A stretch of 64,000 nt of DNA. Origin: Candidatus Adlerbacteria bacterium (GTDB lineage Bacteria; Patescibacteriota; Minisyncoccia; Phycocordibacterales; SBAW01). Made by a program: the position numbers and the translations under genes. Shown here piece by piece: positions 26,803 through 53,218 of this stretch; positions within the stretch are counted from its first letter, which is position 1, and every line of letters starts with the position of its first letter. The notes under the pieces were generated by a model, which was not told the DNA's origin, did not search any database, and was given only the letters and a program-made list of their open reading frames with translations. The stretch is taken from assembly GCA_029288895.1 (NCBI GenBank), contig JARIGK010000004.1, positions 77,621-141,620 on the forward strand, given 5' to 3'.

Positions 26803-27219
26803 ATGGCACGTATCTCACAGCTTGTCCGCAAAGGACGCACACAACTGAAAGCAAAATCAAAGTCACCGGCTCTTGGCCGCGGCTTTAACGTGCTTAAGAA
26901 CCGCCCCGTCTTCTACCCGTCGCCATTTAAGCGCGGCGTTTGCACCAAGGTCACTACAATGACTCCTCGCAAGCCTAACTCCGCTATCCGCAAAATCGCC
27001 CGCGTACGCTTGACCAACGGTCAGGAAATCACCGCATACATCCCAGGTGAAGGCCACAACCTCCAGGAGCACTCAGTCGTCGTCGTTCGCGCAGGCCGCG
27101 TGAAGGACATCAACGTCCGCTACCAGATCGTCCGCGGTCGCTTGGATGCAGGTGCAGTCGAGAAGCGCAACGTCTCTCGCTCGCGCTACGGTGTTAAACG
27201 CTCAGGTGGCAAAAAATAA
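26803..27219 (+). CDS. rpsL: 30S ribosomal protein S12
   Basis: '[48 protein letters not shown]' is near-identical to consensus uS12. Confidence 0.96.
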
Positions 27220-27229
27220 ATAAGGAATA

Positions 27230-27706
27230 TTGTATATGCGTCGTCCAGTAAAAAATCGTAATATCGTCGGCCCGGACATGAAGTTCAACTCAACGAAGGT
27301 TGAGAAGTTCATCAACTCTGTTATGTGGGACGGCAAAAAGTCGACTGCCCGCAAGGTTGTCTACGATGCATTCGACATCATCCAGGAAAAGACCAAGGCA
27401 GAATCTCCATTGGAAGTATTTGAAACTGCGCTCCGCAACGTTGGCCCTGCAATGGAAATCCGTTCTCGCCGTGTCGGTGGTGCAAACTACCAGGTGCCGC
27501 GCGAAGTTCGCCCAGAGCGCAAGCAGGCTCTCGCGTACCGCTGGATCCTCCAGGCAGCACGCGCACGCAAAGGTATGCCGATGGCAAACCGCCTTGCAGA
27601 AGAAATCATTGCAGCATCGAACAACGAAGGTCCAGCAATCAAGAAGAAGGACGATACGCACAAGATGGCAGAGTCCAACAAAGCCTTCGCACACTTCGCT
27701 TGGTAA
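27230..27706 (+). CDS. rpsG: 30S ribosomal protein S7
   Basis: '[26 protein letters not shown]' and '[14 protein letters not shown]' uS7 signatures. Confidence 0.95.
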
Positions 27707-27754
27707 TTTTTTTCAAGTTGGAAACTTCCTACTGATGAGGTAGGTTACAAAGAG

Positions 27755-27790
27755 CGGCATATGCCGTTCTTTTGTTTTGTAATAGGGGAG
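27755..27790 (+). terminator. rho-independent terminator after rpsG (cggcatatgccg palindrome + ttcttttgttttg)
   Basis: Palindromic GC stem followed by a T-rich tract. Confidence 0.6.
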
Positions 27791-27797
27791 TAGCGTA

Positions 27798-27974
27798 ATG
27801 GACGAAAAGCAATCTCCTAAGCCGAGGAGGTCGGGATGGTCGTTCGACCCGCACTTTGGGCCTAAGGCTCCGATTGATTGCGACCACGTCGCAGGGTCGG
27901 ATATTTGCCCGCGCTGCGGAGCACAACTTCATGCAAAGCCACACACCCCAGAATCTCCGACGCCCGCCGCTTAG
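27798..27974 (+). CDS. small zinc-ribbon-like protein (58 aa, not in ORF track)
   Basis: AGGGGAG 8 nt upstream of ATG 27798. Translation 'MDEKQSPKPRRSGWSFDPHFGPKAPIDCDHVAGSDICPRCGAQLHAKPHTPESPTPAA' with a C-x-H...C-x2-C motif. A terminator follows immediately. Confidence 0.4.
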   Translation: MDEKQSPKPRRSGWSFDPHFGPKAPIDCDHVAGSDICPRCGAQLHAKPHTPESPTPAA

Positions 27975-27992
27975 GCGGGCTTTTCTTTTACC
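27961..27992. terminator. bidirectional terminator (gcccgccgc-tta-ggcgggc + TTTTCTTTT)
   Basis: Hairpin overlapping the stop of the small ORF. It also serves the convergent minus-strand gene that ends at 27988. Confidence 0.65.
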
Positions 27993-28671
27993 TAAATGTT
28001 GCTAGCTGCGCTTCCGCGAGAGGGATATCTTCGTGGCGATTGATAGGCAACCACGCATCTTGTTGCTCGACATGCACAGGGTTTTTTGCCGCCAAGGCAT
28101 TAACAAGATCTGGTAAAAGATATTCTTTCAATGTTTTTGATTCTTCCATTGTTTGCGCAAAAATCTGCTCGTCGAGCACCATCACTCCGGTTGATACTAA
28201 GTTACTTTCTGGCGCGGCGGGCTTTTCAGTGATGCGCGCGAGCGTTCCATCTTCTTTCATTGATATAACTCCGAAGCGTTCTGGATGGTCGCTTGGTGCC
28301 GCGAGTACCGCGTAGGTATGGGTTGCCATACGCGCAAGTGCCTCACTGCCGTGGATGTCGTCGCCCAGCATAACGAGAAACTTCCCAGACACGTACGGTT
28401 TGCACTGGGCAAGTGCGTGCGCCGTCCCTCGCGGTTCGTCTTGCATAACGTAGCGCACGGGGAGGTTGTAGAAGACGTCTCCGCAGTGCGCGCGAATTGC
28501 TTCATGGAGATGGGAAACGACAAGAATAAGTTCGTCGACCGAAGAGGGGAGGGCGCCCACGATATGGTCTAAAAGTGGTTTGCCGGCAACTTCGATGAGT
28601 GGTTTTGGGATGCGTTCTGTCAGAGGGAGCAACCGAGTGCCTTTGCCTGCGGCTAAGATGACGCATTTCAT
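27988..28671 (-). CDS. sugar-phosphate nucleotidyltransferase (NTP_transferase family)
   Basis: 'ILAAGKGTRLLPLTERIPKPL' is the G-x-G-T-R nucleotide-binding signature. 227 aa short form. Confidence 0.75.
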   Translation of the reverse strand: MKCVILAAGKGTRLLPLTERIPKPLIEVAGKPLLDHIVGALPSSVDELILVVSHLHEAIRAHCGDVFYNLPVRYVMQDEPRGTAHALAQCKPYVSGKFLVMLGDDIHGSEALARMATHTYAVLAAPSDHPERFGVISMKEDGTLARITEKPAAPESNLVSTGVMVLDEQIFAQTMEESKTLKEYLLPDLVNALAAKNPVHVEQQDAWLPINRHEDIPLAEAQLATFR

Positions 28672-28802
28672 AGGGTGTATCTGTATGAGAATAGCGGATT
28701 ATTGGCAAAAGTTACAGAAAATGTTCTTTTGCTTTTTTTGAGCGAGAGGAGTATTGTATGGGCAACGCGCTTTCGCGCTATTTTTAATCCTCATTATTGT
28801 AT

Positions 28803-30956
28803 ATGGCAGACACCAGAGACTATCCATTGGAGCGCGTGCGTAACTTCGGCATCATTGCGCACATCGACGCGGGCAAGACCACGACGTCGGAACGCATCCT
28901 CTACTACACCGGTTCACAGCACAAAATCGGCGAAGTGCACGAAGGCGAAACCACCACCGACTGGATGGAGCAGGAGCGCGAACGCGGCATCACTATTACC
29001 GCGGCGGCTATCACCTGCTTCTGGAGCAAATCAAACGAGCCAGACAAGAAAGACCCTGCTAAGAAGACCCGCTTCAACATCATCGACACTCCAGGCCACA
29101 TCGACTTTACCGTCGAAGTGAAGCGCTCAATGCGCGTCTTGGACGGCGCAGTCTGTGTCTTCGACGGCGTTGCAGGCGTCGAACCTCAGTCTGAAACAAA
29201 CTGGCGCTACGCCGACGAGGCAAACGTGCCGCGCATCTGCTTCATCAACAAGCTCGACCGCATGGGCGCGTCGTTCGAAAAGTCGTACCAGTCAATTCTT
29301 GACCGCCTTTCTCCAAAAGCAGTCCGCATGCAGTTGCCGATTGGTGCAGAAGAAGCGCTCGAAGGCGTCGTCGACCTCCTGTCGATGAAGGCATACAAGA
29401 ACGAAGGTGCGATGGGCGACGAAATCGTCGAAATGCCATTCCCTGAAGCGATGCGCGCAGAAGCTGAAAAGTACCGCGGCCAGCTTATCGAAAAGATTGT
29501 CGAAAACGACGAGGCGCTTATGACCTCATACCTTGATGGCCAAGAGCCCTCGATGGAACAGTTGAAAGCAACGCTTCGCAAAGCAGTTATCGCAAACCAG
29601 ATCTTCCCGGTATACACCGGCTCGGCACTCAAAAACAAAGGCGTGCAGCACGTGCTCGACGCAGTCGTCGACTACTTGCCATCTCCGCTCGACATGCCGG
29701 CGGTGAAGGGTACCGACCCACGCACGGGTGATGAAATCGAACGCCATGCATCGGACTCGGAGCCGTTCTGCGCGCTCGCATTCAAACTCCAAGCAGACCC
29801 ATTCGTCGGCCAGCTTACCTTCTTCCGCGTGTACTCGGGTTCGATCGAAGCAGGCTCATACATTTACAACGCAACAACAGGCCAGAAAGAACGCCTCGGC
29901 CGCATCGTGCGCTTGCAGGCAAACCAGCGCGAAGAAGTAAAGAAAGTCTACGCCGGCGAAATCGCTGCAGCCGTAGGTCTCAAAGACACGAAGACCTCGC
30001 ACACGCTCTGCGATGAAGCAAATCCAATCGTTTTGGAGCAGATCAAATTCCCAGAACCAGTTATCTCGCTCCGCATCGAGCCGAAGACCAAAGCAGACCA
30101 GGAGAAGATGGGTATCGCACTCAAGAAACTTTCTGACGAAGACCCAACCTTCCGCGTGACCTCTGACCCAGAAACTGCCGAGACACTTATCTCAGGCATG
30201 GGCGAACTCCATTTGGAAATCTTGGTTGACCGCATGAAGCGCGAGTTCAACGTCGAAGCAAACGTCGGTACGCCGCAGGTTGCCTACCGCGAAACGATCC
30301 TCCAGGAGGCAGAAGCAGAAGGTAAGTACATCAAGCAGACGGGCGGTAAGGGCCAGTACGGCCACGTGCGCCTGCGCTTGAAGCCGCTGCAGCCGCTCGA
30401 AGAAGGCGCAAAGATTCCGAAGAACGTAACGCGCGAAGAGCACTTCGAATTCATCAACAGCATCAAGGGCGGTGTCGTCCCGCAAGAATTTATTGCCCCG
30501 GTTGAAAAGGGCATCCGCGAAGCAATGGAACGTGGCTTTGTTGCAGGCTTCAAGATGGTTGATATTTCGGCCGAGCTCTACGACGGTTCGTACCACGATG
30601 TCGACTCCTCAGAAATCGCCTTCAAGATTGCAGCATCGATGGGCTTCCAGGAAGCTGCACAAAAAGCGCGCGCCGTGTTGCTCGAGCCGATCATGAAAGT
30701 GGAAGTTGTCGTCCCAGAAAAGTTCATGGGTGACGTCACTGGCTCGCTTTCAGGTAAGCGCGGTGCAATCGAAGGCATGGAAGAACGCGGTTTGGCCCGC
30801 GCCGTTAAGGCAAAAGTACCGCTGTCTGAAATGTTCGGCTACACCACACAGCTCCGCTCGATGACCGAAGGCCGCGGTTCGTTCACTATGGAATTCGACC
30901 ACTATGAAGTCGTTCCTCCGAACGTCGCAGCTGATATCATCGCAAAGCGCAAATAA
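28803..30956 (+). CDS. fusA: elongation factor G
   Basis: '[24 protein letters not shown]' G1 motif, 'DTPGHIDF' and 'NKLDR'. Five-domain length. ATG 28803 is preferred over the upstream TTG. Confidence 0.96.
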
Positions 30957-30998
30957 TCTCCTCCGTAAGAACAGCATGGGCGCCGCGTCTTCAGATAT

Positions 30999-32006
30999 AT
31001 GAAGAAATTAACCGCGGCGCTTTTTGCTTTATTGGTATTGATATCTGCATCTCCCGTATCGGCAAATAGTTACATTGCTCCAACCTCGTGTCCGCAATTT
31101 TCTGTAAATCTCTACATGGGTGCGCGTGATGCGGCCATGGGTGGGCAGGTGAGCCAACTCCAGCAATTTCTCAATCAGCGTTATGGCAACCAGCTTGTCA
31201 CCGGCTACTTTGGTGTGATGACCGCGGCGAATGTATCGCGCTTGCAGCAAGAGCTCGGTATTGCTCGCGTGGGCGGCGTGGGCCCTCTGACGCGCGCAGC
31301 AATCGCAAAACTTTGCAGCACAAGCGGTACGCCCACGCCGACAGCAGGCAGCCTCTCTGCGTACCCATCGTCGGGCACGGCACCTTTGGCTGTGAACTTT
31401 ACCGCGACTGTACCGGACACGAACCAATACATCATCGACTTTGGTGATGGTGCGAACAGCGGCCCTATTGGTGCAGGCGTCGTGGCACACACATACCAAA
31501 ACCCTGGCACGTACACCGCGAACCTCTCGCGCTATATCTCGTGCCTCTACGCGACACCAGTGCACTGCATGATCGCCGTGATGCCGATTGCGTCAGCGAC
31601 GGTCACTGTTGCGGCACCTCAAACACAAACAAATACGCTCCAAGTCACAAGCCCTGCGGCGGGGCAGATATATACACGCGGCAGCCAGATGAACATCAGC
31701 TGGAGCGGCCTCGTGCGCGAAACATTTGCCTACGAGCCACATGCAAGCATTGTCGACCTCTACACGGCAGCAGGTACTAAAGTGGGTACCATCGCAATCA
31801 CGAATGATTTGAAAGGTAGCTATGACTGGCATATCCCTGGCTTTCCGCAAACTATGATGTGCACGATGCAATATCCAAATGCACTCTGCGGCACCAATGT
31901 GCAGGGCCAGTACTACATCCAAGTCACCGCGGTTGTGGGCAATGGCTTTGGCACAAACGAAACAGTCATTGGTACAGCGCAAAGCGGCGTCTTCGGAGTT
32001 CAATAA
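30999..32006 (+). CDS. secreted protein: signal peptide + peptidoglycan-binding (PG_binding_1) + PKD domain
   Basis: Signal peptide 'MKKLTAALFALLVLISASPVSA'. 'QLQQFLNQRYGNQLVTGYFGVMTAANVSRLQQELGIARVGGVGPLTRAAI' is PGBD-like. 'PLAVNFTATV...IIDFGDG...HTYQNPGTYTANLS' is a PKD domain. Confidence 0.65.
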   Translation: MKKLTAALFALLVLISASPVSANSYIAPTSCPQFSVNLYMGARDAAMGGQVSQLQQFLNQRYGNQLVTGYFGVMTAANVSRLQQELGIARVGGVGPLTRAAIAKLCSTSGTPTPTAGSLSAYPSSGTAPLAVNFTATVPDTNQYIIDFGDGANSGPIGAGVVAHTYQNPGTYTANLSRYISCLYATPVHCMIAVMPIASATVTVAAPQTQTNTLQVTSPAAGQIYTRGSQMNISWSGLVRETFAYEPHASIVDLYTAAGTKVGTIAITNDLKGSYDWHIPGFPQTMMCTMQYPNALCGTNVQGQYYIQVTAVVGNGFGTNETVIGTAQSGVFGVQ

Positions 32007-32065
32007 ACAAAAAAGATATCCCCACACACCGCTTGTCGGAAGCGGGGAAGAGAATACACTAGTAA

Positions 32066-32112
32066 GTAACAGGGCATCCCGGAAACGGGAGGCCCTTTCT
32101 CTTTTATTTTTG
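32066..32112 (+). terminator. rho-independent terminator (gggcatcccg-gaaa-cgggaggccc + tttctcttttatttttg)
   Basis: Strong GC hairpin followed by a long T-rich tract. Confidence 0.7.
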
Positions 32113-32125
32113 TAACTTTCTATCG

Positions 32126-34120
32126 ATGGAAAAATTCGCACGTGCACTCGAACTCGCAACCGCCTACTTCGCAGTAGGCGTGTTGATGGTGCTGGTCGCA
32201 GGCACCGCCGTGCCGCCTTCAGGCGCGCCGTTTGCTGCAGCCGCAGTGGCGGGATGTACGCCTCCATCATTTTCGAACCTCACTATCACCGCAGCCAATT
32301 TGTATACGCCCTGGAGTGTGCCGCTCTTGTCGGCCATCAATGATGCGTCGTTCCCAACTGTAAGTGCCACGGGTTTGCCGCCGGGTATTACACTCAAAGA
32401 CCAGACCACCACGCTCACCACAGGCGCTGGCTCCGTGCTCCACACCTGGGTCTTGGATGGTGCGCCGACGCAGCTTGGCACCTACACCATCACGGTAACT
32501 GCGCAGAATAGCTGCGGTGGTGCGTCGACCGTTATCACACTTCCGATCAATAACACCCAGACTGCCGCGGGGACTGTCTCGTGCCCGGCGGGGTACGCGG
32601 GCGCATACCCCAACTGTGTTTCAAGCTCGGGCCCGAGTGTATCGTTTGACCAAGCATCGCTTGTGGCAACAAGTTCGACAGCGATAATTACCGGCACGTC
32701 GCGCACGTCGTCGGTAAAATTGACCGTCCAAACTCCGAACGGCATTACCTACAGTAGCGAAACTGCACCTGTCGGCGGTGGGCGCTGGACAATCGTGCTC
32801 AAAAATTTAACGAGTGGCCTCTATTCGCTCTATTTGTACGACGGCAATAATTCGCCATTGTTGCCGGGCAGCTTAACCGTTACGTTGCCCGGTGATACCA
32901 AGCCTGCGCAGAACTTTTCCAGCGGTTCTAGCGAACCGGGACAAAGTTTTACTCCGGCATCAGCGAAGGCGTCTGCGCAGGCAACAAGGACTTCAACGTT
33001 TTCATGCAGCAATATTCCTACAACGCTCAAAATAGGGAGCCGCGGAAGCACGGTGCTTGCACTGCAAAAATCACTTATCTCAATAGGCGCATTGCCGTCT
33101 GATTCAGCAACCGGCTATTTTGGCCAAGCGACAAATTCGGCGGTCGCACGCCTGTGTCCATCAATTTCGGCAACAACCGTGCAGACGACAACAAGTTTGC
33201 CGGCATGCCCGAAAGTCGCCGTACCGCCGTGCCAGCATGGGACGCTTGTATCGCTTGGGGCCGACCAAAACCACTGCACGCTTGGTTATATGTGCCAGCA
33301 ACAGCCGGGCTCGAACTGCCCATCGGTGACCGCACCTCTGTGTTCGGGCGGGACAATAGTTTCAAGTGGCACAGACATAAATGGCTGCTCGACCGGCTAT
33401 TCGTGCCAGAAAGTGTCATGCCCCACTGTGCCGCAGCCAACCTGCGCACCAGGCCTGCGGCTTGTAACAGGCCCTGATGCAAACGGATGCGCAACCGTGT
33501 CCTACTGTATTGATGGCAACGGAAATACAACAAGCGTCACAGGCGCCTCGTCTGCCACAACAAATAATTCAACCAGCATCTTTAGTAATTTCTTTGGCGG
33601 TTTGGGCTCTATAGGTTCGTCATTTAGCAGTTACTACAGTTCAATTTTTGGTACCCAACCGACAGCAGGTGTCACCACATCGGCGGCAGGGAGTGCTGCT
33701 GCTGCAAGTAATGCGTCGCAGGCGTACACGACGCTTTCTTCGAAATATACCAACGCAACACTTACCAAGTGCACCGCTACCGATGGTAGCGTGAGTTATA
33801 CCGCAAAAGGGTTTAACAACGACGGCACAAGCTATGAAATCCAAACCTACCCCGTTGGAGTAACGCCAAGCGGCGCGTGTCAGATAACGCAATACACTGG
33901 CCCTGCAGCACTGCGTGGCAGTAATAGCATTGGAGGAACAGTGACAAGCCCAAGTAGTGGCGTGGGTGCAAGTAGCTATGGCGGCGCTGATGGAAGTACT
34001 GGCGGCACTGCCGGGGCAGACGCTTCATCCGGCAACGCAAGCGCAGCAGATGCATCAGCCGCTGCAAACGGCGACTCGAGCGGCGATGGCACAGGCGGCG
34101 GAACAGGAGGTACCTATTAG
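32126..34120 (+). CDS. large secreted/wall-associated protein with internal PG_binding_1 domain, three ~31-aa Cys-repeats and Gly/Ser/Ala-rich tail
   Basis: N-terminal hydrophobic anchor. 'STVLALQKSLISIGALPSDSATGYFGQATNSAVARL' is PGBD-like. The repeat C-P-x-V-x3-C-x2-G-x-V/L-x3-G-x-D-x-N-x-C-x2-G-Y-x-C-Q occurs three times. C-terminal 120 aa are G/S/A/D-rich. Confidence 0.6.
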   Translation: MEKFARALELATAYFAVGVLMVLVAGTAVPPSGAPFAAAAVAGCTPPSFSNLTITAANLYTPWSVPLLSAINDASFPTVSATGLPPGITLKDQTTTLTTGAGSVLHTWVLDGAPTQLGTYTITVTAQNSCGGASTVITLPINNTQTAAGTVSCPAGYAGAYPNCVSSSGPSVSFDQASLVATSSTAIITGTSRTSSVKLTVQTPNGITYSSETAPVGGGRWTIVLKNLTSGLYSLYLYDGNNSPLLPGSLTVTLPGDTKPAQNFSSGSSEPGQSFTPASAKASAQATRTSTFSCSNIPTTLKIGSRGSTVLALQKSLISIGALPSDSATGYFGQATNSAVARLCPSISATTVQTTTSLPACPKVAVPPCQHGTLVSLGADQNHCTLGYMCQQQPGSNCPSVTAPLCSGGTIVSSGTDINGCSTGYSCQKVSCPTVPQPTCAPGLRLVTGPDANGCATVSYCIDGNGNTTSVTGASSATTNNSTSIFSNFFGGLGSIGSSFSSYYSSIFGTQPTAGVTTSAAGSAAAASNASQAYTTLSSKYTNATLTKCTATDGSVSYTAKGFNNDGTSYEIQTYPVGVTPSGACQITQYTGPAALRGSNSIGGTVTSPSSGVGASSYGGADGSTGGTAGADASSGNASAADASAAANGDSSGDGTGGGTGGTY

Positions 34121-34237
34121 GTCTCTCTTGCGGCTAGGGTAGCGCTTTGCTACTATGTCCCTAACACTGCATCAGCCGTGTTTGGCGTGCTTTATATTGT
34201 TCGGAATTATTCATTATAAATAATAGTAATTTTAGGT

Positions 34238-44721: not shown

Positions 44722-44779
44722 TGACAAGGATGGTTAGATGGTTTATGCTCGTGCCAGGCACATTTTGGAGGAATAGAAC

Positions 44780-45295: not shown

Positions 45296-45300
45296 CAAAC

Positions 45301-45333: not shown

Positions 45334-45389
45334 ACAAAACGTGCACTGCAAGTAGTATGTGCAGCGGATTCACAAAACAGGAGAAGCTC

Positions 45390-46022: not shown

Positions 46023-46029
46023 CAGTTCT

Positions 46030-46063
46030 TAAGCGACCCACCCGGGCCGCTTTTTTCTTTTTA
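46030..46063. terminator. cassette hairpin 5: GCGACCC-acc-cGGGCCGC + TTTTTTCTTTTT
   Basis: Imperfect version of the same element, with one mismatch. Confidence 0.55.
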
Positions 46064-46216
46064 TAAAATATGGGGCTGGTGGTAGGGGATTATTGATATT
46101 TTTGAAAAATGTGTTAAAAAAGCTGCAGCTGATGGTAGTGGCATTCCGCCATATCCACTGACAGCTCTTTGTCGTCCAGCCTACCCTGTGCCAATGACGG
46201 GGATGGTTATAGCGCA

Positions 46217-46891
46217 ATGGAGAAACTAATGCGTGCTGTGTCTCGTGACCAAGCGACTAATCTTATTGGGCGTATTGCAACGACTATAAATTTTGGACCT
46301 CTGGATTCCCAATTCGTCCAAAAGGCAATCATCGAAGGCCTCGACGACGAGGAATTCGGTGACAACGTCACCAGCTTTCTCAAGAATGGGGCCAAAAGAG
46401 TCATCGCCCTTCCGAAATCTCTGGACATCAACCATCATCTACGTCCGGAAAACGTAGACCAGGTGTCGCAACTCTGGAAAGGTCCGTTTCCGAGCGATGG
46501 GACTCGAGGTAATGTAGTGGACCACCTTCCAGACTTGCAATCCCTGGAATTTTCCAGAGTTGCCTTTAGTCGTCCAAAAGGGAGCCAGCTCGCTGCTGGT
46601 CATATCTACCAGGAATTAGTGGGGCAAGTGCCGCTCCTTGGCTTTCGGGTAGGGATGGCGCTTATGCGGGACTATAAAGAGCGTGGCAAAGATTCTGCGC
46701 TTGAGTGGTATCGTGCTACCTACGACATTCGGGACATGACATTCATGGGCACAGTCCTGCGCCGACCAAGTGACGGGTACCCATTCTTTTATGGCCTGCA
46801 GCATATAAATAGTGTGTGGGATTGGGGTTCCGTGGGGCTTTGGGATCTCACGTTTTCGGAGCAGGAGGCTATACCTATTTACGTCCCCTAG
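46217..46891 (+). CDS. hypothetical protein (~225 aa), cassette 5
   Basis: Start 46217 or 46229, the latter with GGAGA 6 nt upstream. No recognisable domain. Confidence 0.42.
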   Translation: MEKLMRAVSRDQATNLIGRIATTINFGPLDSQFVQKAIIEGLDDEEFGDNVTSFLKNGAKRVIALPKSLDINHHLRPENVDQVSQLWKGPFPSDGTRGNVVDHLPDLQSLEFSRVAFSRPKGSQLAAGHIYQELVGQVPLLGFRVGMALMRDYKERGKDSALEWYRATYDIRDMTFMGTVLRRPSDGYPFFYGLQHINSVWDWGSVGLWDLTFSEQEAIPIYVP

Positions 46892-46904
46892 AGCTGGGGT
46901 TTGT

Positions 46905-46940
46905 TCGGGCCCGCGGTAAAACGCGGGCCTTTTTTCTTTG
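46905..46940. terminator. cassette hairpin 6: GGCCCGCG-gtaaaa-CGCGGGCC + TTTTTTCTTTG
   Basis: 8-bp GC stem and T-run immediately after the cassette 5 stop. Confidence 0.7.
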
Positions 46941-46942
46941 GT

Positions 46943-46971
46943 TTGACTTATAGGGTGGGGTCGAGTATATT
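46943..46971 (+). promoter_or_regulatory. sigma70-type promoter TTGACT-N17-TATATT upstream of rpsN, followed by short leader hairpin agccc-gttt-gggct + T7 (46979-47000)
   Basis: TTGACT 46943-48, TATATT 46966-71. The attenuator-like hairpin sits right at the predicted 5' end of the transcript. Confidence 0.6.
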
Positions 46972-47083
46972 GATGCCTAGCCCGTTTGGGCTCCTTTTTT
47001 TCGTCAGGTGCCGCTTAGTCGCAAGGCGAGGCAAACCCACGAGATCATAACTCCCTAGGTATAAGGGGAGTAACCATTCAAAA

Positions 47084-47269
47084 ATGGCAAAAAAATCTAC
47101 AATCGCACGCTCTAACAAGACCCCGAAGTTTAAGTCTCGGGTAGTTCGCCGTTGCTTCCGCTGCGGCCGCAAGCGCGCCTTTATGCGTGATTTCGGCATG
47201 TGCCGCGCATGCTTCCGCGAAGCTGCTAACGAAGGCCTTATCCCTGGCGTCCGCAAATCATCTTGGTAA
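47084..47269 (+). CDS. rpsN: 30S ribosomal protein S14 type Z (zinc-binding)
   Basis: 61 aa with '[23 protein letters not shown]' C4 zinc motif. Confidence 0.95.
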
Positions 47270-47272
47270 TTT

Positions 47273-47662
47273 ATGGTAACTGACCCTATCTCAGACTTGA
47301 TCGTCCGCATCCAGAACGCGTCTCGCGCAAAGAAGACGTCGGTCTCTTTGCCATTCTCGAAGATGAAGTTGGCTGTCGCAGAAGTCCTTGAACAGGAGGG
47401 CTATATCGGCGGCATCGACAAGAAGGCAAGCAAGGAAGGCGTTCTCTCATTCGAACTTTCCTACAAAAACGGCACTCCGGCAGTTAATGGCGTTAAGCGT
47501 ATCTCGAAGCCATCGCGCCGCATGTACGCAAGCGTCCACGACATCAAGCCGGTAAAGCGCGGCTACGGCCTCGTTGTCCTTTCGACCCCGGCAGGCATCT
47601 TGTCTGGTAAGGCTGCAAAGCAGAAGAATGTCGGCGGCGAAATCCTGTTCGAAATCTGGTAA
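47273..47662 (+). CDS. rpsH: 30S ribosomal protein S8
   Basis: 'DPISDLIVRIQNA' uS8 N-terminus. Confidence 0.95.
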   Translation: MVTDPISDLIVRIQNASRAKKTSVSLPFSKMKLAVAEVLEQEGYIGGIDKKASKEGVLSFELSYKNGTPAVNGVKRISKPSRRMYASVHDIKPVKRGYGLVVLSTPAGILSGKAAKQKNVGGEILFEIW

Positions 47663-47666
47663 TCAT

Positions 47667-48197
47667 ATGTCACGTCTTGCAAAACAACCTATCGTCCCCG
47701 GCAAAGCTGAAGTCAGCGTGTCTGGTGATGTCATTTCAGTAAAAGGCCCTAAGGGCACGCTCACGAAGCCTACCCACCGCCTCGTCAATGTTGAAGTTGG
47801 CGCAGACGGTGTCCAGGTCTCGGTCCGCGGTGCATCGCTTGAAGCAAAGGCACTCGTTGGCACCTACGCATCGCATGTCAAAAACATGATCAAGGGTGTC
47901 ACCGAAGGCTACACCAAGAAGCTCCTCATCGAAGGTGTCGGCTACAAGTGGGACGTCCAAGGCAAAAAGCTCAACTTGGCGCTTGGCTTCTCGCACCCTG
48001 TGTCCGTTGATATCCCAGAAGGCCTTACCGTCAAAGCAGACAAGGGCGCACTTACCATCGAAGGCCACGACAAAGAAGCAGTAGGCCAGTTCGCGGCAAA
48101 CATCCGCGCCATGAAGAAGCCGGAGCCGTACAAGGGTAAGGGTATCCGCTACGAAGGGGAAGTTATCCGCCGCAAGCAGGGTAAGAAGGCAGCATAA
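47667..48197 (+). CDS. rplF: 50S ribosomal protein L6
   Basis: 'MSRLAKQPIVPGKAEVSVSGDVISVKGPKGTL' uL6. ATG 47667 follows the rpsH stop. Confidence 0.94.
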   Translation: MSRLAKQPIVPGKAEVSVSGDVISVKGPKGTLTKPTHRLVNVEVGADGVQVSVRGASLEAKALVGTYASHVKNMIKGVTEGYTKKLLIEGVGYKWDVQGKKLNLALGFSHPVSVDIPEGLTVKADKGALTIEGHDKEAVGQFAANIRAMKKPEPYKGKGIRYEGEVIRRKQGKKAA

Positions 48198-48208
48198 CGA
48201 ATTGATTT

Positions 48209-48511
48209 ATGGATAAACGCACACGCCGCCACAATCGCATACGCGCAAAAGTACAGGGCACAACAGAACGCCCTCGCCTTGCTGTGTACAAATCTAACCG
48301 CTATATGGAAGCGCAGATCATTGATGATACGAAGGGCCACACCTTGGCATCTGCAAAGATGGATGATGCTGCAAAGGCAGGCGCAGAAGTTGCCAAGAAG
48401 GCAAAGGCAGCAGGTGTCACACGCGTTGTGTTCGACCGCGGTGGCTTCCGCTACACTGGTCGTGTCGCAGCATTGGCAGAGGCAGCACGTGCGGCAGGTC
48501 TTGAATTCTAG
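48209..48511 (+). CDS. rplR: 50S ribosomal protein L18
   Basis: '[34 protein letters not shown]' uL18. Confidence 0.93.
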
Positions 48512-48525
48512 TACTCAAACTTTAT

Positions 48526-49119
48526 ATGGCTGAAAACGAAAACACACAGGTAATAGAAACCACAGAAGCTGCAGCGCCTGCTGCAGATGCTTCGAGCGCG
48601 CCTCGCAATGACCGCGGTCCTCGCGGCCGTGGTGGCCGTGGAGGCGACCGTGGTGGCCGCCGCCCGTCGTCGCGCCCTCCTCGCCCGAAAAGCGAGTTCG
48701 ATCAGCGCATGATCAACATCCGCCGCGTCGCCCGCGTCGTTGCCGGTGGCCGCCGCTTCTCATTCTCAGTTGCGATTATCATCGGCAACAAGAAGGGCAA
48801 AGTTGGCGTAGGCTTGGGCAAAGCAGGGGACACCACCTTGGCAATCGACAAGGCAGTCCGCGATGCAAAGAAGAACATGATCACCGTATCGCTCACCAAA
48901 GACAACTCAATCGCACACGAAGTGTCGGCAAAGTACAACGCAGCACGCGTGACCATGATGCCAGCACACGGCCGCGGGTTGGTCGCAGGCTCATCAGTTC
49001 GCCCAGTGCTCGAGCTTGCTGGTGTCACTAACATCGTCGCAAAGATCCACTCTGGCTCGAAGAATGGTTTGAACAACGCACGCGCAGCAGTCGAAGCGCT
49101 CAAGAACCTCAAGGCGTAA
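48526..49119 (+). CDS. rpsE: 30S ribosomal protein S5 (with Arg/Gly-rich N-terminal extension)
   Basis: 'INIRRVARVVAGGRRFSFSVAIIIGNKKGKVGVGLGKA' uS5 dsRBD-like domain. Confidence 0.94.
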   Translation: MAENENTQVIETTEAAAPAADASSAPRNDRGPRGRGGRGGDRGGRRPSSRPPRPKSEFDQRMINIRRVARVVAGGRRFSFSVAIIIGNKKGKVGVGLGKAGDTTLAIDKAVRDAKKNMITVSLTKDNSIAHEVSAKYNAARVTMMPAHGRGLVAGSSVRPVLELAGVTNIVAKIHSGSKNGLNNARAAVEALKNLKA

Positions 49120-49132
49120 TCTCTAACACTAT

Positions 49133-49576
49133 ATGCAGCTCCACGAACTCAAACGCAAAACAGAAAACAAGACCGCAAAGCGCGTCGGTCGCGGCGGTGG
49201 CCGTGGTAAGACCTCGGGCCGCGGTACCAAGGGTCAGAACGCACGTTCAGGCCACAAGAAGCGCCCAGAAATCCGCGAAATCTTGAAGAAGCTTCCAAAG
49301 CGTCGCGGTCGCGGTATCGCGGGCCTCGTCTCTATCCAGAGCAAGCCGCTTGTCGTAAACATCTCGTCGCTCGAAGTCGCATTCAAGGCAGGTGATGTTG
49401 TAAACCCAACAACCCTCCTCGAGCGTGGCCTTATCCGCGCACGTAAAGGCGACGCAACTCCAAAGGTAAAAATTTTGGGCAATGGTGAAATCACCAAAAA
49501 GCTCACATTCTCGGGTGTTGTTATCTCGGGCTCTGCAAAGGAAAAGATAGAAAAAGCGGGCGGTTCGGTAGCGTAA
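49133..49576 (+). CDS. rplO: 50S ribosomal protein L15
   Basis: 'LKRKTENKTAKRVGRGGGRGKTSGRGTKGQ' uL15. It follows rpsE directly, with no L30 gene. Confidence 0.93.
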   Translation: MQLHELKRKTENKTAKRVGRGGGRGKTSGRGTKGQNARSGHKKRPEIREILKKLPKRRGRGIAGLVSIQSKPLVVNISSLEVAFKAGDVVNPTTLLERGLIRARKGDATPKVKILGNGEITKKLTFSGVVISGSAKEKIEKAGGSVA

Positions 49577-49582
49577 ACCTCT

Positions 49583-50845
49583 ATGCTTCAAAAACTCACA
49601 CTGCTTTTGACCGACAAGCTTCTCCGCAACCGGCTGCTCTTTGTGCTGGGTGCCTTGGCTGTGTTCCGCGTGCTTGCAAGCATCCCGATCCCAGGCATCA
49701 ACGCACAGCAGTTGCAGCTGTTTTTCGCAAATAACCAATTCTTTGGCCTCTTGAACTTGTTCTCAGGCGGCGGCCTCTCGAACCTTTCGCTCGTACTCTT
49801 GGGCGTTGGCCCCTACATCACTGCGTCGATTATCTTGCAGCTCCTTACTATGATGGTGCCGTCGCTCAAGGCGCTCTATCAAGAAGAAGGGGAGGCAGGC
49901 CGCGTCAAGTTTAGCCAGTACACTCGTTTTCTTACACTCCCAGTGGCCGTGGTGCAGGGCATTAGCTTCTTGCTTATCCTCCAGCGCGAAGGCGTTATGC
50001 CGGGCCTTTCGTCCTTCCAGTTTGGTATTAACTTGCTCGTCATTGTTGCGGGCTCATTGCTGTTGATGTGGCTTGGCGAGCTCATCTCGGAGTTTGGGTT
50101 GGGCAACGGCGTTTCGGTCCTTATCTTTGCCGGTATCGTTGCACGCTTGCCGCAGGATGCATCACAGGCACTCTTTGCATTTAACTCGAGCCAGCTCCCG
50201 GTCTACTTGGGATTCATCGCAGCAGCAGTTGCTGTCGTGGCGGCCGTTGTCGTTGTCACAGAAGCAGAGCGTCCAGTGCCGGTGACGTACGCTAAGCGCG
50301 TGCGCGGTATGAAGTTCTTTGGCGGCGCTTCGACCTACTTGCCACTTCGTTTGAACCAGGCAGGCGTGATCCCGATTATCTTCGCACTCTCGCTCTTGCT
50401 TATCCCGCAGATGGCAGCAACTTTCTTCCAGACCTCGCACATCGCATGGTTGGCCACTGCTGCAAGCGCTGTCTTGCACACCTTCCAGAATTTGGCAGTG
50501 TACGGCGCACTCTACTTTGTGCTCGTCTTCCTCTTTACCTACTTCTACACCGCAGTCACGTTCGACCCGCATCAGATCTCTGAGAACTTGCAGAAGAACG
50601 GCGCATTTATCCCAGGTGTCCGCCCGGGCCAGTCCACCATGGAACACTTGGGCCGCGTTATCACACGCATCACCTTCGTCGGCGCATTGTTCCTCGGCGT
50701 TATCGCAGTCTTGCCGATCGCTATGCAGTCGCTCACCGGCATCCAGTCGCTTGCCCTCGGCGGCACCGCACTCTTGATCGTTGTCTCTGTCATCTTGGAC
50801 CTCGCGCGCCGCATTGACGCGCAGATCTCAATCCGCGAATATTAA
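49583..50845 (+). CDS. secY: preprotein translocase subunit SecY
   Basis: 10-TM protein. 'GVGPYITASIILQLLTMMVPSL' is SecY TM2 and 'NGVSVLIFAGIVARLP' matches. Confidence 0.95.
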   Translation: MLQKLTLLLTDKLLRNRLLFVLGALAVFRVLASIPIPGINAQQLQLFFANNQFFGLLNLFSGGGLSNLSLVLLGVGPYITASIILQLLTMMVPSLKALYQEEGEAGRVKFSQYTRFLTLPVAVVQGISFLLILQREGVMPGLSSFQFGINLLVIVAGSLLLMWLGELISEFGLGNGVSVLIFAGIVARLPQDASQALFAFNSSQLPVYLGFIAAAVAVVAAVVVVTEAERPVPVTYAKRVRGMKFFGGASTYLPLRLNQAGVIPIIFALSLLLIPQMAATFFQTSHIAWLATAASAVLHTFQNLAVYGALYFVLVFLFTYFYTAVTFDPHQISENLQKNGAFIPGVRPGQSTMEHLGRVITRITFVGALFLGVIAVLPIAMQSLTGIQSLALGGTALLIVVSVILDLARRIDAQISIREY

Positions 50846-50849
50846 GCAA

Positions 50850-51266
50850 ATGGGAAAGACTGTCGACATCCACAAGGCTGCCGGCGTTCTATTGAAAGAT
50901 AGAAAGTTCCTTATCACGCGCACACGTGGCAAGGAATTTTTTATTGCACCGGGTGGGCGGCTTGAAGCAGGGGAGAGTGTGACCGATGCTCTCATTCGCG
51001 AACTGAAAGAAGAGCTTTCAATCGATACAAAAGCTGAAGATTTTGAAGTGTTGGGCACGTTTTATGCCCCGGCAGCAGGCGCGGAAGACAAATATCTCCA
51101 GAGCGATGTTTTTATCGTCAAACATTGGGCGGGCGAAATTATACCTGCTGCAGAAGTAGAAGAAGTGAAATGGATCGATTCAAATATGCCAGAAGGCTTG
51201 GTGCTCGGCTCAATATTTTTACATGATGTTCTGCCCGCTCTTAAAGAGCGCAATCTTATTGACTAG
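50850..51266 (+). CDS. NUDIX hydrolase
   Basis: Nudix box 'GGRLEAGESVTDALIRELKEELS' (GX5EX7REUXEEXGU). Start at ATG 50850. Confidence 0.85.
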   Translation: MGKTVDIHKAAGVLLKDRKFLITRTRGKEFFIAPGGRLEAGESVTDALIRELKEELSIDTKAEDFEVLGTFYAPAAGAEDKYLQSDVFIVKHWAGEIIPAAEVEEVKWIDSNMPEGLVLGSIFLHDVLPALKERNLID

Positions 51267-51269
51267 TAT

Positions 51270-51842
51270 ATGAAAGGGAAACTTATTTTAGTGGTGAGTC
51301 CGGCGGGTGGTGGGAAAAGTACGCTGCTCAAATATCTCCGCGAGCAGATGCCGGATATTGTGTTTCCAGTGTCGTGCACGACGCGCCCTATGCGTCCAGG
51401 CGAGGTAGAAGGCGCGGTCTACCATTTCATCAGTGACGAGGAGTTCCAGAAGCGTGCAGCAAATAACGAATTTTTGGAATGGGTCTATACCGACGGCAAA
51501 CGCTACGGCACGCTTAAATCAGAAATCGTCCCGCCTGTAGAGGCAGGCAAAACTGTCGTGCGCGAAATTGACATCAAAGGCCTCTACAAAATTGAAGAGA
51601 TTTTGCCGAAAGAAAATGTGCGCACTATCTACATTGATGCGGGCACGTGGGATGATTTGGAAAAGCGCATCGTCGCCCGCGCCCCAATAGAGCAGACCGA
51701 ACTTGCTTCGCGTCGCGCACGTTTCGAAGCAGAGGCACCATTTAAAGATCATGCCGACATTGTCGTTAAAAACCCCGATGGTGGGCTCGAGCAGGCAAAG
51801 CAGGATTTTATTGCAGCAGTCAAAACACTCGCGGTGGCGTAG
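51270..51842 (+). CDS. gmk: guanylate kinase
   Basis: P-loop 'SPAGGGKST', 'CTTRPMRPGEVEGAVYHFIS' and 'EF' guanylate kinase signature. Confidence 0.88.
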   Translation: MKGKLILVVSPAGGGKSTLLKYLREQMPDIVFPVSCTTRPMRPGEVEGAVYHFISDEEFQKRAANNEFLEWVYTDGKRYGTLKSEIVPPVEAGKTVVREIDIKGLYKIEEILPKENVRTIYIDAGTWDDLEKRIVARAPIEQTELASRRARFEAEAPFKDHADIVVKNPDGGLEQAKQDFIAAVKTLAVA

Positions 51843-51857
51843 TGTACAATACAAAAC

Positions 51858-52448
51858 GTGGAAAAACAGACACTCATATTTTTAGGTCCGCAGGGTTCGG
51901 GAAAGGGTACACAGATACAGCTTTTAAAAGAATATCTCCAGAAGAACGATTCAACTCGTGCGGTATTTGAATTTGGTATGGGGCAAGGACTGCGTGAGCT
52001 CGCAACCTCTCCTAGTTTTGCAGGAAAGAAGACCGACTCTATCTTAAAGAACGGAGGTCTTATCCCGTATGCAATCTCGTGCAGCGTATTCACCCAGTTC
52101 TTGATGAATAATTATTCTGGGGAAGAGCATCTGATTATTGATGGCTTCCCACGAACCGCCGACCAAGTGCCTGCGCTCGATTCAGCGCTCGAGTTTTTCG
52201 AAGCAAAGCCGATAACCGTGGTGTGTATAAATATTTCTGATGAAGAAGCAGTGACGCGCTTACTGAAGCGTGGGCGCAGCGATGACACAGAAGAGGCAAT
52301 ACGAAAGCGCCTTGCATGGTCGCGCAAAGATACTATGCCTAACATTGCCTGGTTTAAGACAGCGCCTAACTACCGCGTACTCGAAATAGATGGCGCACGC
52401 TCTGTCGAAGAAATTCAGAAAGACATCATCACACAGCTCGGGCTCTAA
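51858..52448 (+). CDS. adk: adenylate kinase (short, no Zn lid)
   Basis: 'LIFLGPQGSGKGTQ' P-loop and 'LIIDGFPRTADQ'. Confidence 0.9.
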   Translation: MEKQTLIFLGPQGSGKGTQIQLLKEYLQKNDSTRAVFEFGMGQGLRELATSPSFAGKKTDSILKNGGLIPYAISCSVFTQFLMNNYSGEEHLIIDGFPRTADQVPALDSALEFFEAKPITVVCINISDEEAVTRLLKRGRSDDTEEAIRKRLAWSRKDTMPNIAWFKTAPNYRVLEIDGARSVEEIQKDIITQLGL

Positions 52449-52453
52449 CGTAT

Positions 52454-53218
52454 ATGATCGCAAAAACAAAAGAAGATTACGAAGGATTGCGCATGTCGGG
52501 CAAAATTTTGTCTGGCGCATTGAAAGAAACTGCCAAGTTGGTAAAGGCGGGAGTTTCGACTGCGCAGCTTGATTTGGCAGCCGATGAATATATCCGCGCG
52601 CACGGTGGTGTGCCTGCATTCCTCAACTACAAGCCCTCTGGTGCCTCGTACCCATTTCCAGCAGCGCTCTGCGTTTCTGTAAACGACGAAGTCGTGCACG
52701 GCATACCGCGCGAAGATGTTGTATTGGAAGATGGCGACATCATTACGCTCGACCTTGGAGTGAACTACAACGGCTACTTTACTGACTCTGCAATTTCTGT
52801 GGCAGTGGGGGAGGCAACAAAAGAAACACAGCGTTTTTTTGATGCGGGCCGCGAAGCGCTTTCGGCTGGCATTAAAGCGGCGAAGGCAAACGGCCACACC
52901 GGCGACATTGGTGCGGCGGTGGAGGCGGTAGTCCGCCGCTATGGCTACAGTGTTGTTGAAGAGTTGGGCGGCCACGCAGTAGGCGGCGGTGTGCACGAAA
53001 AACCTTTTATAGAAAATACGGGCACTGCGGGCACGGGCGAAGTCATGCCCGAAGGCTTGGTTATTGCCATTGAGCCAATTGTGGCAGAAGGCAAAGGTAG
53101 CATTGTCATAGAAGATGACGAATGGACCTACTCGACAGAAGACGGCTCGCGCGCCTGCCACTTTGAACAAACCATCATTCTCACCAAAGACGGTGCAGAG
53201 ATAATCACACCGTTTTAA
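52454..53218 (+). CDS. map: type I methionine aminopeptidase
   Basis: 'VVHGIPRE', 'DIITLDLGV', 'GHAVGGGVHE' and 'LVIAIEP' metal-ligand motifs. Confidence 0.93.
   Translation: MIAKTKEDYEGLRMSGKILSGALKETAKLVKAGVSTAQLDLAADEYIRAHGGVPAFLNYKPSGASYPFPAALCVSVNDEVVHGIPREDVVLEDGDIITLDLGVNYNGYFTDSAISVAVGEATKETQRFFDAGREALSAGIKAAKANGHTGDIGAAVEAVVRRYGYSVVEELGGHAVGGGVHEKPFIENTGTAGTGEVMPEGLVIAIEPIVAEGKGSIVIEDDEWTYSTEDGSRACHFEQTIILTKDGAEIITPF

Follow-up and report, generated by a model that had tools for sequence, protein, structure and literature searches.

A ribosomal protein gene cluster of canonical order interrupted at seven junctions in a Patescibacteria genome

In Escherichia coli and Bacillus subtilis, the str, S10 and spc operons are under leader control by ribosomal proteins (r-proteins), according to the Nomura-type feedback model. 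The str-type cluster of archaea carries S10 after EF-1alpha, apart from the L3 cluster, and phage morons are autonomous promoter-gene-terminator units that lie between the genes of a conserved late-gene cluster. Here, we analysed a 64,000-nucleotide (nt) stretch of a Candidatus Adlerbacteria genome (contig JARIGK010000004.1; the whole stretch is called the window below), in which the r-protein cluster running from rpsL to map holds non-ribosomal DNA at seven junctions: rpsG/fusA (junction 1), fusA/tuf (2), tuf/rpsJ (3), rpsJ/rplC (4), rplB/rpsS (5), rplE/rpsN (6) and secY/adk (7). In Gammaproteobacteria and Bacilli, a few genes inserted between operons have been described as the first step of cluster erosion; the inserted genes, tusDCB, bfd-bfr, ilv-leu and nrdHEF, usually lie at transcription-unit junctions and are not kept in all descendants (Brandis, 2021). 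The window is like that system in that small numbers of unrelated genes occur within a conserved translation cluster. However, those earlier insertions sit mostly at rpoBC|str and str|S10, whereas the occupied joints here are internal to the classical str, S10 and spc operons, the S10|spc joint being tight, and many junctions are occupied at once, clade-wide, by faster-turnover and mostly uncharacterised cargo.

The gene order of the window is that of the E. coli and B. subtilis operons, and its units likewise start with structured leaders, in which a terminator-like hairpin recalls the L4-mediated attenuation in the S10 leader; in contrast to those operons, the unit boundaries are different, no Rfam r-protein leader is matched, L30 and an adjacent alpha operon are absent, and accessory genes lie between the units. 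As with phage morons, junctions 3, 4, 5 and 6 hold monocistronic units with a promoter-like site, a ribosome-binding site and a terminator, but the host cluster is chromosomal and ribosomal, and the cargo has no PHROG or phage-genome match. Junction 6 resembles an integron array, being made of same-orientation single-gene units with a repeated hairpin element between them; unlike in integrons, no integrase is found in the window and the cassettes carry promoter-like sites, and the repeats are approximately 30-nt GC terminator hairpins with T-runs rather than attC sites, which are palindromes of 60–140 nt with R/L boxes. Chromosomal integration hotspots offer a further parallel, with the same flanking core genes in many genomes and unrelated content between them, although the window has neither the tRNA nor the recombinase of mobility-gene hotspots. 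Finally, the linkage of tuf to rpsJ in the clade, together with the split between rpsJ and rplC (14/72 loci), recalls the archaeal EF-1alpha-S10 linkage and differs from it in that a terminator and a minus-strand gene separate tuf from rpsJ in the window. The layout is a variation on known operon-boundary and insertion-hotspot behaviour, from which its boundaries, multi-site use and clade-wide stability differ. A literature search found no description of such a layout in Candidate Phyla Radiation (CPR)/Patescibacteria.

Since synteny of the r-protein block is the standard by which uncultivated bacteria are placed on the tree and contigs are checked for integrity, variable interruptions in one large Patescibacteria clade matter for binning, marker extraction and synteny-based annotation. 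The locus further suggests that, even in the most conserved gene cluster of bacteria, operon boundaries can shift without any change in gene order, and that an existing boundary appears to attract fast-turnover accessory genes; its promoter-hairpin-U leader and a 330-nt RNA are candidates for translation-gene regulation in little-known organisms.

Layout of the cluster in the window

Six-frame open reading frames (ORFs), their translations, Pfam and tblastn gave a canonical order from rpsL to map, all on the plus strand (26803–53218): rpsL, rpsG, fusA, tuf, rpsJ, rplC, rplD, rplW and rplB, then rpsS, rplV, rpsC, rplP, rpmC, rpsQ, rplN, rplX and rplE, then rpsN (a short form of 61 amino acids, aa), rpsH, rplF, rplR, rpsE, rplO, secY, adk and map. 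An earlier reading of these letters, which we call the original prediction, had described a str-S10-spc-alpha order. This stands for rpsL to map, but the alpha label is unsupported, because none of the alpha-operon genes rpsM, rpsK, rpsD, rpoA and rplQ, nor infA or rpmJ, occurs from map to position 64000; the next ORF after map is YdjM-like and on the minus strand. The rpmD gene (L30) is also missing between rpsE and rplO, which are 13 nt apart. The core genes and their predicted units are as follows.

26803–27706, plus strand: unit 1, rpsL (26803–27219) and rpsG (27236–27706), from translations; tblastn identity of 60–90% in relatives
28803–32006, plus strand: fusA (28803–30956), then the accessory gene PG335 (30999–32006), with a 42-nt spacer and no terminator between them
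34238–35431, plus strand: tuf, from its translation; identity of 75–87% in relatives
35768–36241, plus strand: rpsJ unit, with a weak promoter TTGCAA-17-CATACT (35768–35796), a leader and rpsJ (35873–36241)
36704–39252, plus strand: rplC-rplD-rplW-rplB unit, with promoter TTTGCA-18-TATAGT (36704–36733) and a leader of approximately 65 nt; rplC starts at 36801 and rplB ends at 39252
40090–43694, plus strand: rpsS-rplE unit of nine genes, with promoter TTGACT-17-TAGTAT (40090–40118) and a structured 100-nt leader; rpsS starts at 40221 and rplE ends at 43694
46943–50845, plus strand: rpsN-secY unit, with promoter TTGACT-17-TATATT (46943–46971), a 5′ hairpin and U-run (46979–47001) and a second conserved leader hairpin; rpsN starts at 47084 and secY ends at 50845
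50853–53218, plus strand: nudix (50853–51266), gmk (51270–51842), adk (51858–52448) and map (52454–53218), from Pfam and NCBIfam

Inserts were found at each of the seven junctions where non-ribosomal material had been predicted. They amount to approximately 10.7 kb within the 26.4-kb cluster and comprise 15 ORFs and one structured RNA, most of the accessory units having their own promoter-like site, ribosome-binding site and predicted terminator. The spacers at these junctions measure 441–3389 nt, so that the within-operon contiguity of the canonical supercluster is lost there, and the classical S10|spc joint (rpsQ|rplN) measures 6 nt. The original prediction spoke of self-contained modules throughout, a description that fits junctions 3–6 and part of junction 1 but neither junction 7 nor PG335, because neither a promoter nor a terminator lies 5′ of these. 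ARAGORN found no transfer RNA (tRNA) or transfer-messenger RNA in the 64-kb window, and no Rfam family reached its gathering threshold in it.

Given that a metagenome assembly is the probable source of the sequence, and that the sole identical protein on record is listed from one NCBI contig of 298 kb, an interrupted cluster could in principle reflect an assembly or binning artefact with chimeric joins inside the cluster. We regard this as extremely improbable: the order and orientation of the 27 genes are perfect, the GC content of the inserts (0.50–0.56) equals that of the flanks, and independent assemblies from many studies have gaps at the same junctions.

Recurrence of the gaps and diversity of their contents

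Spacers were measured by tblastn with the window proteins in 160 loci around L2 and L3 homologs; the relatives are the best 80 matches of each of two scans, and taxonomy is known for L001–L014 only. By L2, the closest genomes are Patescibacteria metagenome-assembled genomes (MAGs), namely 'Minisyncoccia bacterium SPRUCE_529' at 81% identity and Zambryskii-, Kaiser- and Paceibacterota MAGs at 63–70%. Together with the absence of L30, these relatives point to a Patescibacteria chromosome of the Minisyncoccia/Paceibacteria type. The nearest relative, L001, has an L2 81% identical to that of the window, and a metagenome scan with L3 returned nothing closer than L001, its best match being 63% identical. 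Gaps of at least 300 nt recurred at five junctions in Patescibacteria-like loci, compared with a set of 65 loci from other phyla.

rpsG/fusA: 9/26 Patescibacteria-like loci; 0/12 in other phyla
fusA/tuf: 19/24 Patescibacteria-like loci; 0/9 in other phyla
rpsJ/rplC: 14/72 Patescibacteria-like loci; 2/41 in other phyla
rplB/rpsS: 23/51 Patescibacteria-like loci; 0/63 in other phyla
rplE/rpsN: 13/34 Patescibacteria-like loci; 0/34 in other phyla

At the remaining junctions of the Patescibacteria-like loci, such gaps were mostly seen in 0–1 loci, with rplC/rplD (4/83) and tuf/rpsJ (2/45) slightly higher. Ordered by L3 identity, the loci divide abruptly: in a clade without L30 (27 loci), 22 of the 26 relatives with an L3 identity of at least 51% carry a gap of at least 400 nt at rplB/rpsS; loci with an L3 identity below 50% mostly have room for L30 and tight junctions, the exception being L133 with 3170 nt at rplB/rpsS. 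Accordingly, the rpsE-rplO spacer measures 12–157 nt in the clade versus 280–430 nt in more distant loci. The rpsQ|rplN joint stays tight clade-wide, at a median of 32 nt and no more than 170 nt; tuf and rpsJ usually lie close together (median 65 nt), and rpsJ is often separated from rplC. In this clade, variable DNA of up to approximately 4.7 kb routinely interrupts the r-protein block at these five fixed positions.

An architecture that had been predicted to be unusual is indeed so in relation to other phyla (no gap at four of these junctions, and 2/41 at rpsJ/rplC), whereas it is the norm in its own clade. The original prediction had named an interrupted layout ancestral to the whole lineage as evidence that would count against it, and this is borne out in part: the positions of the breaks look ancestral, while their contents are genome-specific.

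This specificity is pronounced. The 155 largest non-overlapping gap ORFs fell into 143 clusters, 132 of them singletons, and the 27 rplB/rpsS gaps have neither a common ORF, even at an E-value of 0.1, nor a common nucleotide element. None of the window's cassette genes was found in the 160 loci, except for the nucleotidyltransferase of junction 1 (in L010) and the PG-binding domain of junction 2 (in L116). Pfam matches among 150 cargo ORFs of relatives made toxin-antitoxin genes the commonest named class, with the toxins HicA (four), PemK (two) and YafQ/ParE/HigB (two), alongside pyrimidine-synthesis genes in one subclade, a reverse transcriptase, a restriction enzyme, DAG kinase, Lgt and others. 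A module of two genes occupies rplC/rplD in L108 (11013–11605) and rpsG/fusA in L102 (1406–1998), which is sequence evidence of small modules apparently moving between junctions.

These contents bear on whether the inserts are instead lineage-specific translation partners, that is, ribosome-associated factors, regulators or regulatory RNA kept for co-regulation. In favour of such a role, gmk, adk and map are classical spc-operon passengers, and gmk is also found between secY and adk in L003 and L006, and beside adk on the opposite strand in L012; in addition, rplB/rpsS is occupied in 85% of the clade, and the RNA unit of junction 4 lies directly upstream of the rplC promoter. However, cargo at the same junction is unrelated even between genomes with approximately 80% identical r-proteins, the commonest named cargo in relatives is selfish toxin-antitoxin genes, homologs of the fifth cassette of junction 6 occur in non-ribosomal contexts, and three units of the window lie on the opposite strand. 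Co-regulated translation partners are therefore a very improbable account of the inserts.

Boundary signals and a probable partition of the cluster

The terminators predicted after rpsG, tuf, rpsJ, rplB and rplE were all recovered as hairpins of −15 to −23 kcal/mol with T-runs; across the window, hairpin energies range from −10.6 to −23.4 kcal/mol, and the features of intrinsic terminators, a GC-rich stem-loop and a U-run directly 3′ of the stop codon, are present at these predicted sites. Of the promoters in the original prediction, those of rpsS (40090) and rpsN (46943) hold up, with identical hexamers in L001 (TTGACT-17-TAGTAT and TTGACT-17-TATATT, respectively) and the same leader hairpin, while the rpsJ site at about 35768 is weak, matching 8/12 consensus positions. 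The promoter at 36314, which had been assigned to rplC, would drive the RNA unit of junction 4 instead, and the putative rplC promoter is the site at 36704, which has a counterpart in L001 (8133–8161); just before the start codon, the rplC leader reads similarly by eye in the window and L001 (GTTGATCCAYGT...TAGACAACATG). In the rpsN-secY unit, 98 nt are 79% identical between the window and L001. The second hairpin of the rpsN leader (GGUGCCGCUUAGUCGCAAGGCGAGGCA; window 46999–47045) is nearly identical at L001 16165–16205 and is a candidate r-protein autoregulatory site.

Comparable signals mark the same boundaries across the clade. Promoter-like sites (at least 9/12) precede tuf in 82%, rpsS in 53% and rpsN in 47% of loci, against approximately 5–25% for most other genes and up to 33% for rpsL and secY. 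Predicted terminators follow fusA in 32%, rplB in 29%, rpsG in 19%, rpsJ in 18% and rplE in 15% of loci, against 0–4% for most other genes (tuf 7%, rpsL 8%, rplO 14%). In the other-phyla set, we saw the textbook pattern of promoters before rpsL and rpsJ and terminators after tuf and rpsQ. A TTGAC[AT]-16/17-TAnnAT site (at least 9/12) lies before rpsS in 24 of the 27 clade loci, and in 16 of these 24 a 5–8-bp hairpin with a U-run begins 4–9 nt past the −10 element. In total, the 27 loci contain 40 such promoter-hairpin-U composites, 32 of which precede rpsS, rpsN, tuf or fusA; at random positions, the composite occurs at a rate of 0.7%. The composite hairpin, placed 3–10 nt downstream of the promoter and often 4–26 nt before the start codon, varies in stem sequence between genomes while its structure is kept, with no Shine-Dalgarno sequence evident by eye, and may act as an attenuator or stabilise the 5′ end. 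The conservation of junction signals is the strongest evidence for real junction promoters; within the window, the promoters are backed by their position and conservation and not by counts.

Our preferred reading, which we consider probable on this comparative sequence evidence, is that the cluster was re-partitioned in the ancestor of the clade into about seven units, and that the boundaries between them became permissive landing sites for fast-turnover cassettes. The ancestor of the L30-less Patescibacteria clade would have redrawn the transcription-unit boundaries with gene order unchanged, giving rpsL-rpsG, fusA (with PG335), tuf, rpsJ, rplC-rplB, rpsS-rplE and rpsN-map. The new boundaries would be rpsG|fusA, fusA|tuf, rpsJ|rplC, rplB|rpsS and rplE|rpsN rather than the classical ones, the downstream units beginning with a putative TTGACW-16/17-TAnnAT promoter, usually with a 5′ hairpin and U-run within 3–10 nt, and several upstream units closing with a predicted intrinsic terminator. 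An insertion into a junction that has its own terminator and promoter would leave the expression of the essential downstream gene intact, and such junctions would then be hot spots for the quick gain and loss of small accessory cassettes; permissiveness of the junctions, rather than a function of the cargo, would account for the inserts. The predicted split into at least five transcription units is supported by the conservation of signals, with seven r-protein units as the count suggested by sequence.

An unlikely alternative is that the cluster is still transcribed as one or two superoperons, the hairpins being partial attenuators or elements of RNA stability or processing, with internal promoters that top up transcription and inserts that ride on read-through. 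Such read-through fits the lack of dedicated promoters for PG335, PG664, nudix, gmk and zn58, the absence of any overall excess of promoter-like matches in the window, and the position of the 5′ hairpin and its U-run downstream of the promoters, where it cannot fully stop transcription if the essential genes are to be expressed. The stems of 13–16 bp after tuf, rpsJ, rplB and rplE are, however, strong (−20 to −23 kcal/mol) and followed by U-runs, the rpsS and rpsN promoters are conserved in sequence and position, and minus-strand units lie among the plus-strand units at junctions 1, 3 and 5, where read-through would therefore meet convergent transcription.

Several observations weigh against the re-partitioning and cassette reading itself. 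The picture of self-contained cassettes does not hold for junction 7 or PG335. The promoters and terminators are consensus matches that are not over-represented across the window, in which 7 promoter-like matches were found against 11.3 expected in shuffled sequence. In L001, the gaps at fusA/tuf, rpsJ/rplC and rplB/rpsS are small, which shows that these junctions are not always occupied. The 85% occupancy of rplB/rpsS is higher than simple permissiveness would predict. The loci are the best matches of two scans and not a phylogenetically designed sample, and with taxonomy limited to L001–L014, 'ancestral' therefore refers to frequency and not to a tree. Lastly, the "no homolog" result for eight cassette ORFs comes from a word-seeded search, which, as described below, missed about 50 homologs of a ninth.

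Contents of the junctions

Junction 6 (43695–47083) shows the cassette organisation most fully, with five plus-strand monocistronic units encoding 78, 179, 171, 210 and 220 aa.

43709–43745, plus strand: rplE terminator, the first copy of a GCGACC..GGTCGC-TTTTTCTTTTG hairpin family (−23.4 kcal/mol)
43789–44056, plus strand: cassette 1, with a 78-aa ORF (43789–44025) and a terminator (44033–44056)
44138–44710, plus strand: cassette 2, with a 179-aa ORF (44138–44677) and a terminator (44691–44710)
44721–45324, plus strand: cassette 3, with a promoter-like site (44721–44749), a Cys-rich 171-aa ORF (44780–45295) and a terminator (45301–45324)
45331–46055, plus strand: cassette 4, with promoter TTGACA-16-TAGTAT (45331–45358), a 210-aa ORF (45390–46022) and a terminator (46032–46055)
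46229–46930, plus strand: cassette 5, with a 220-aa protein (46229–46891) and a terminator (46907–46930)

Cassettes 1–4 terminate in the common GCGACC..GGTCGC-TTTTTCTTTTG hairpin, a diverged fifth copy of which precedes cassette 5, and the terminator of cassette 5 is unrelated to this family. The 16-nt motif of the family's 3′ arm has four exact copies, which within the 64 kb are confined to the junction-6 island. The cassette ORFs, except zn58, show the order GC1>GC3>GC2 (GC content at the three codon positions) of known genes, and had no matches in Pfam, NCBIfam, PADLOC, PHROGs or, by tblastn, phage genomes; a word-seeded search of 5.8 billion clusters with two concatenated queries returned nothing. 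An exhaustive search with cassette 5, in contrast, gave 53 matches, about 50 of them full-length proteins of 210–240 aa at 25–36% identity, so that cassette 5 belongs to an uncharacterised family of approximately 220-aa proteins. The other eight cassette ORFs are therefore 'orphans' only provisionally, because these roughly 50 homologs had been missed by the word-seeded search. Two cassette 5 homologs sit outside r-protein clusters among unrelated genes (acetate kinase, Mur ligase), and a profile search with alignment A3 yielded only 3 proteins.

Junction 5 (39253–40220) contains a 114-aa ORF on the plus strand and a minus-strand pair of 24 aa and 68 aa.

39259–39295: rplB terminator hairpin, copy 1 of a 37-nt direct repeat (−20 kcal/mol)
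39303–39701, plus strand: cassette o114, with a TGGTAGTAT −10 element, an AAGGAGG site and its own terminator (39683–39701)
39712–39748: copy 2 of the 37-nt repeat, 89% identical, the predicted terminator of the minus-strand pair
39747–40111, minus strand: two-gene unit, with promoter TTGATG-17-TATGGT at about 40111–40083

The o114 ORF (39340–39684) encodes 114 aa with an N-terminal hydrophobic segment, and its cassette is bracketed by the two copies of the rplB terminator. The minus-strand unit encodes a basic, Lys-rich 24-aa peptide (39968–40042) and an acidic 68-aa protein (39747–39953), each gene with its own ribosome-binding site, from a promoter that diverges from that of rpsS. Two small adjacent genes of this kind are laid out like a toxin-antitoxin pair, with no Pfam, PADLOC or PHROG match for either.

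At junctions 5 and 6, the resident terminator is thus duplicated around or between cassettes, a pattern that either recombination at the hairpin or local duplication could produce. An integron-like process, in which site-specific capture at terminator hairpins regenerates a hairpin copy on both sides of each insertion, would account for the 37-nt copies around o114 (89% identical), for the hairpin held in common by cassettes 1–4, its diverged fifth copy before cassette 5 and the confinement of its motif to the island, and for a 36-nt palindrome found on both sides of a 3.2-kb insert in L094. Flanking duplications were seen in 3/75 gaps against 0/75 controls, leaving 72/75 gaps without one, and hairpin duplication was rejected as a general signature on this count. 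Moreover, a Pfam scan of the large ORFs of the 64 kb found no recombinase, integrase or transposase, the cassettes have promoters of their own, unlike integron cassettes, and the hairpins resemble ordinary terminators; some relatives have genome-specific families of similar terminators at several junctions with no cassette between the copies (L002), pointing to local duplication or homogenisation. Given the missing recombinase in the window, the promoters carried by the cassettes and the rarity of the signature among the gaps, we rate integron-like capture as a minority possibility, and an improbable one. Mobility genes in relatives are sporadic, with a REP/IS200-like ORF in L014 (judged by eye) and an RVT_1 match.

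Repeats of other kinds were noted in two relatives. In L007, a repeat of approximately 140 nt (73–97% identical) occupies the rplW/rplB, rpsS/rplV and rplN/rplX spacers (9864–10006, 11989–12131 and 14667–14809) and resembles a miniature mobile element. In L002, an element of approximately 35 nt (86–89% identical) lies just upstream of rpsJ, rplC and rpsS (within 5822–6580, 6980–7204 and 9836–10653), a 103-nt inverted match joins the tuf/rpsJ and rplB/rpsS gaps, and one terminator type follows tuf, rpsJ and rplB.

Junction 4 (36242–36800) was predicted to contain a terminator, a promoter and structured RNA, all of which are present, followed by a second terminator and a second promoter.

36262–36297, plus strand: rpsJ terminator, with a 16-bp stem (−20.8 kcal/mol, z −6.2)
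36314–36675, plus strand: predicted non-coding RNA unit, self-contained, with a promoter, an RNA of approximately 330 nt and its own terminator

The unit starts with promoter TTGCTA-17-TATATT with a TG extension (36314–36342) and ends with a terminator at 36640–36665. The 330-nt RNA (36346–36675, plus strand) forms three long hairpins at 36346–36626; when the 64 kb was scanned with a sliding window of 160 nt, no plus-strand stretch was more structured. Its fold of −154.6 kcal/mol (z −8.7) compares with −110.7 kcal/mol (z −1.7) for the minus strand, which is less stable because 25 of the 117 pairs are G-U. An overlapping 135-aa ORF has flat GC1/2/3, unlike known genes. No Rfam 15 family reached the gathering threshold for this RNA, the best sub-threshold matches being terminator look-alikes at E-values of at least 0.18 in searches in E-value mode that covered 36230–36810 and 26600–47100, and no copy was found in 2 Mb of related loci by nhmmer or in phages by blastn; the RNA is absent from L001. 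Signal recognition particle RNA, 6S RNA, RNase P RNA, a retron, a group II intron remnant and ωRNA were set aside as identities for lack of Rfam support; no reverse transcriptase or TnpB gene lies nearby. As read from the fold, both a GGAA-loop domain IV and a central bubble seem to be absent. We treat the RNA as one more cassette, a non-coding one.

A bolder reading, which we find distinctly doubtful, would make the breakpoints a clade-wide platform for regulation and gene capture, with the leader as an undescribed attenuator or stability switch and the hairpins doubling as recombination targets. In Patescibacteria, where the classical leaders are missing, the promoter-hairpin-U module would coordinate the r-protein units, and captured genes and the 330-nt RNA would thereby be placed under strong expression.

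At junction 3 (35432–35872), the antisense small ORF of the original prediction is present on the minus strand, with 73 aa, behind a bidirectional terminator.

35453–35482, both strands: terminator between tuf and as74 (−22.6 kcal/mol)
35487–35708, minus strand: as74, a 73-aa ORF with a GAGGAGG ribosome-binding site and GC1/2/3 of 0.57/0.38/0.68

The promoter region of as74 overlaps that of rpsJ and diverges from it, and no homolog or family match was found in Pfam, PADLOC, PHROGs or the word-seeded search.

Junction 7 (50846–51857) consists of nudix and gmk, as predicted and as matched in Pfam and NCBIfam; nudix, gmk, adk and map are packed tightly behind secY, with spacers of 3–15 nt and no promoter or terminator.

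Junction 1 (27707–28802) comprises the rpsG terminator, the zn58 ORF, a shared hairpin and a minus-strand nucleotidyltransferase.

27749–27772, plus strand: rpsG terminator hairpin (−14.9 kcal/mol, z −4.4) with a U-run
27798–27974, plus strand: zn58, a 58-aa Cys/His ORF, doubtful as a gene (GC1/2/3 0.61/0.58/0.59)
27962–27980: hairpin between the convergent zn58 and nucleotidyltransferase (−17.1 kcal/mol), likely to act as a bidirectional terminator
27988–28671, minus strand: sugar-1-phosphate nucleotidyltransferase (NTP_transferase; Pfam PF00483, E-value 5e-34)

The predicted antisense NTP-transferase is thereby confirmed. It also has GlmU-N/AglF-like NCBIfam matches under the family cutoffs, and in L010 a nucleotidyltransferase 33% identical to it lies at the same junction in the same orientation. 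The predicted Zn-ribbon micro-protein is doubtful as a gene, because zn58 lacks a dedicated promoter and its GC content hardly differs between codon positions; it gave no Pfam match and no homolog in the word-seeded search, and one match with an E-value of 0.004 in family and phage library searches.

Junction 2 (30957–34237) carries two secreted or membrane proteins with PG_binding_1 matches, PG335 and PG664.

32071–32096, plus strand: PG335 terminator hairpin (−19.3 kcal/mol) with a U-run
32126–34120, plus strand: PG664, a Ser/Thr/Gly-rich, membrane-anchored or secreted protein of 664 aa, with a coding-like codon score

Both had been predicted to be large PG-binding secreted proteins. This is upheld for PG335, in which a signal peptide is accompanied by PG_binding_1 and PKD domains in Pfam and by endolysin-type PG-binding matches in family and phage library searches, whereas the PG_binding_1 match of PG664 is weak (E-value 1.3e-3) and below the Pfam cutoff. 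A 74-nt stretch of PG664 (32891–32964) is 74% identical to 58779–58852, 26 kb downstream in the ORF 58308–59234 (DUF5667), and the two are probably surface proteins with a common segment.

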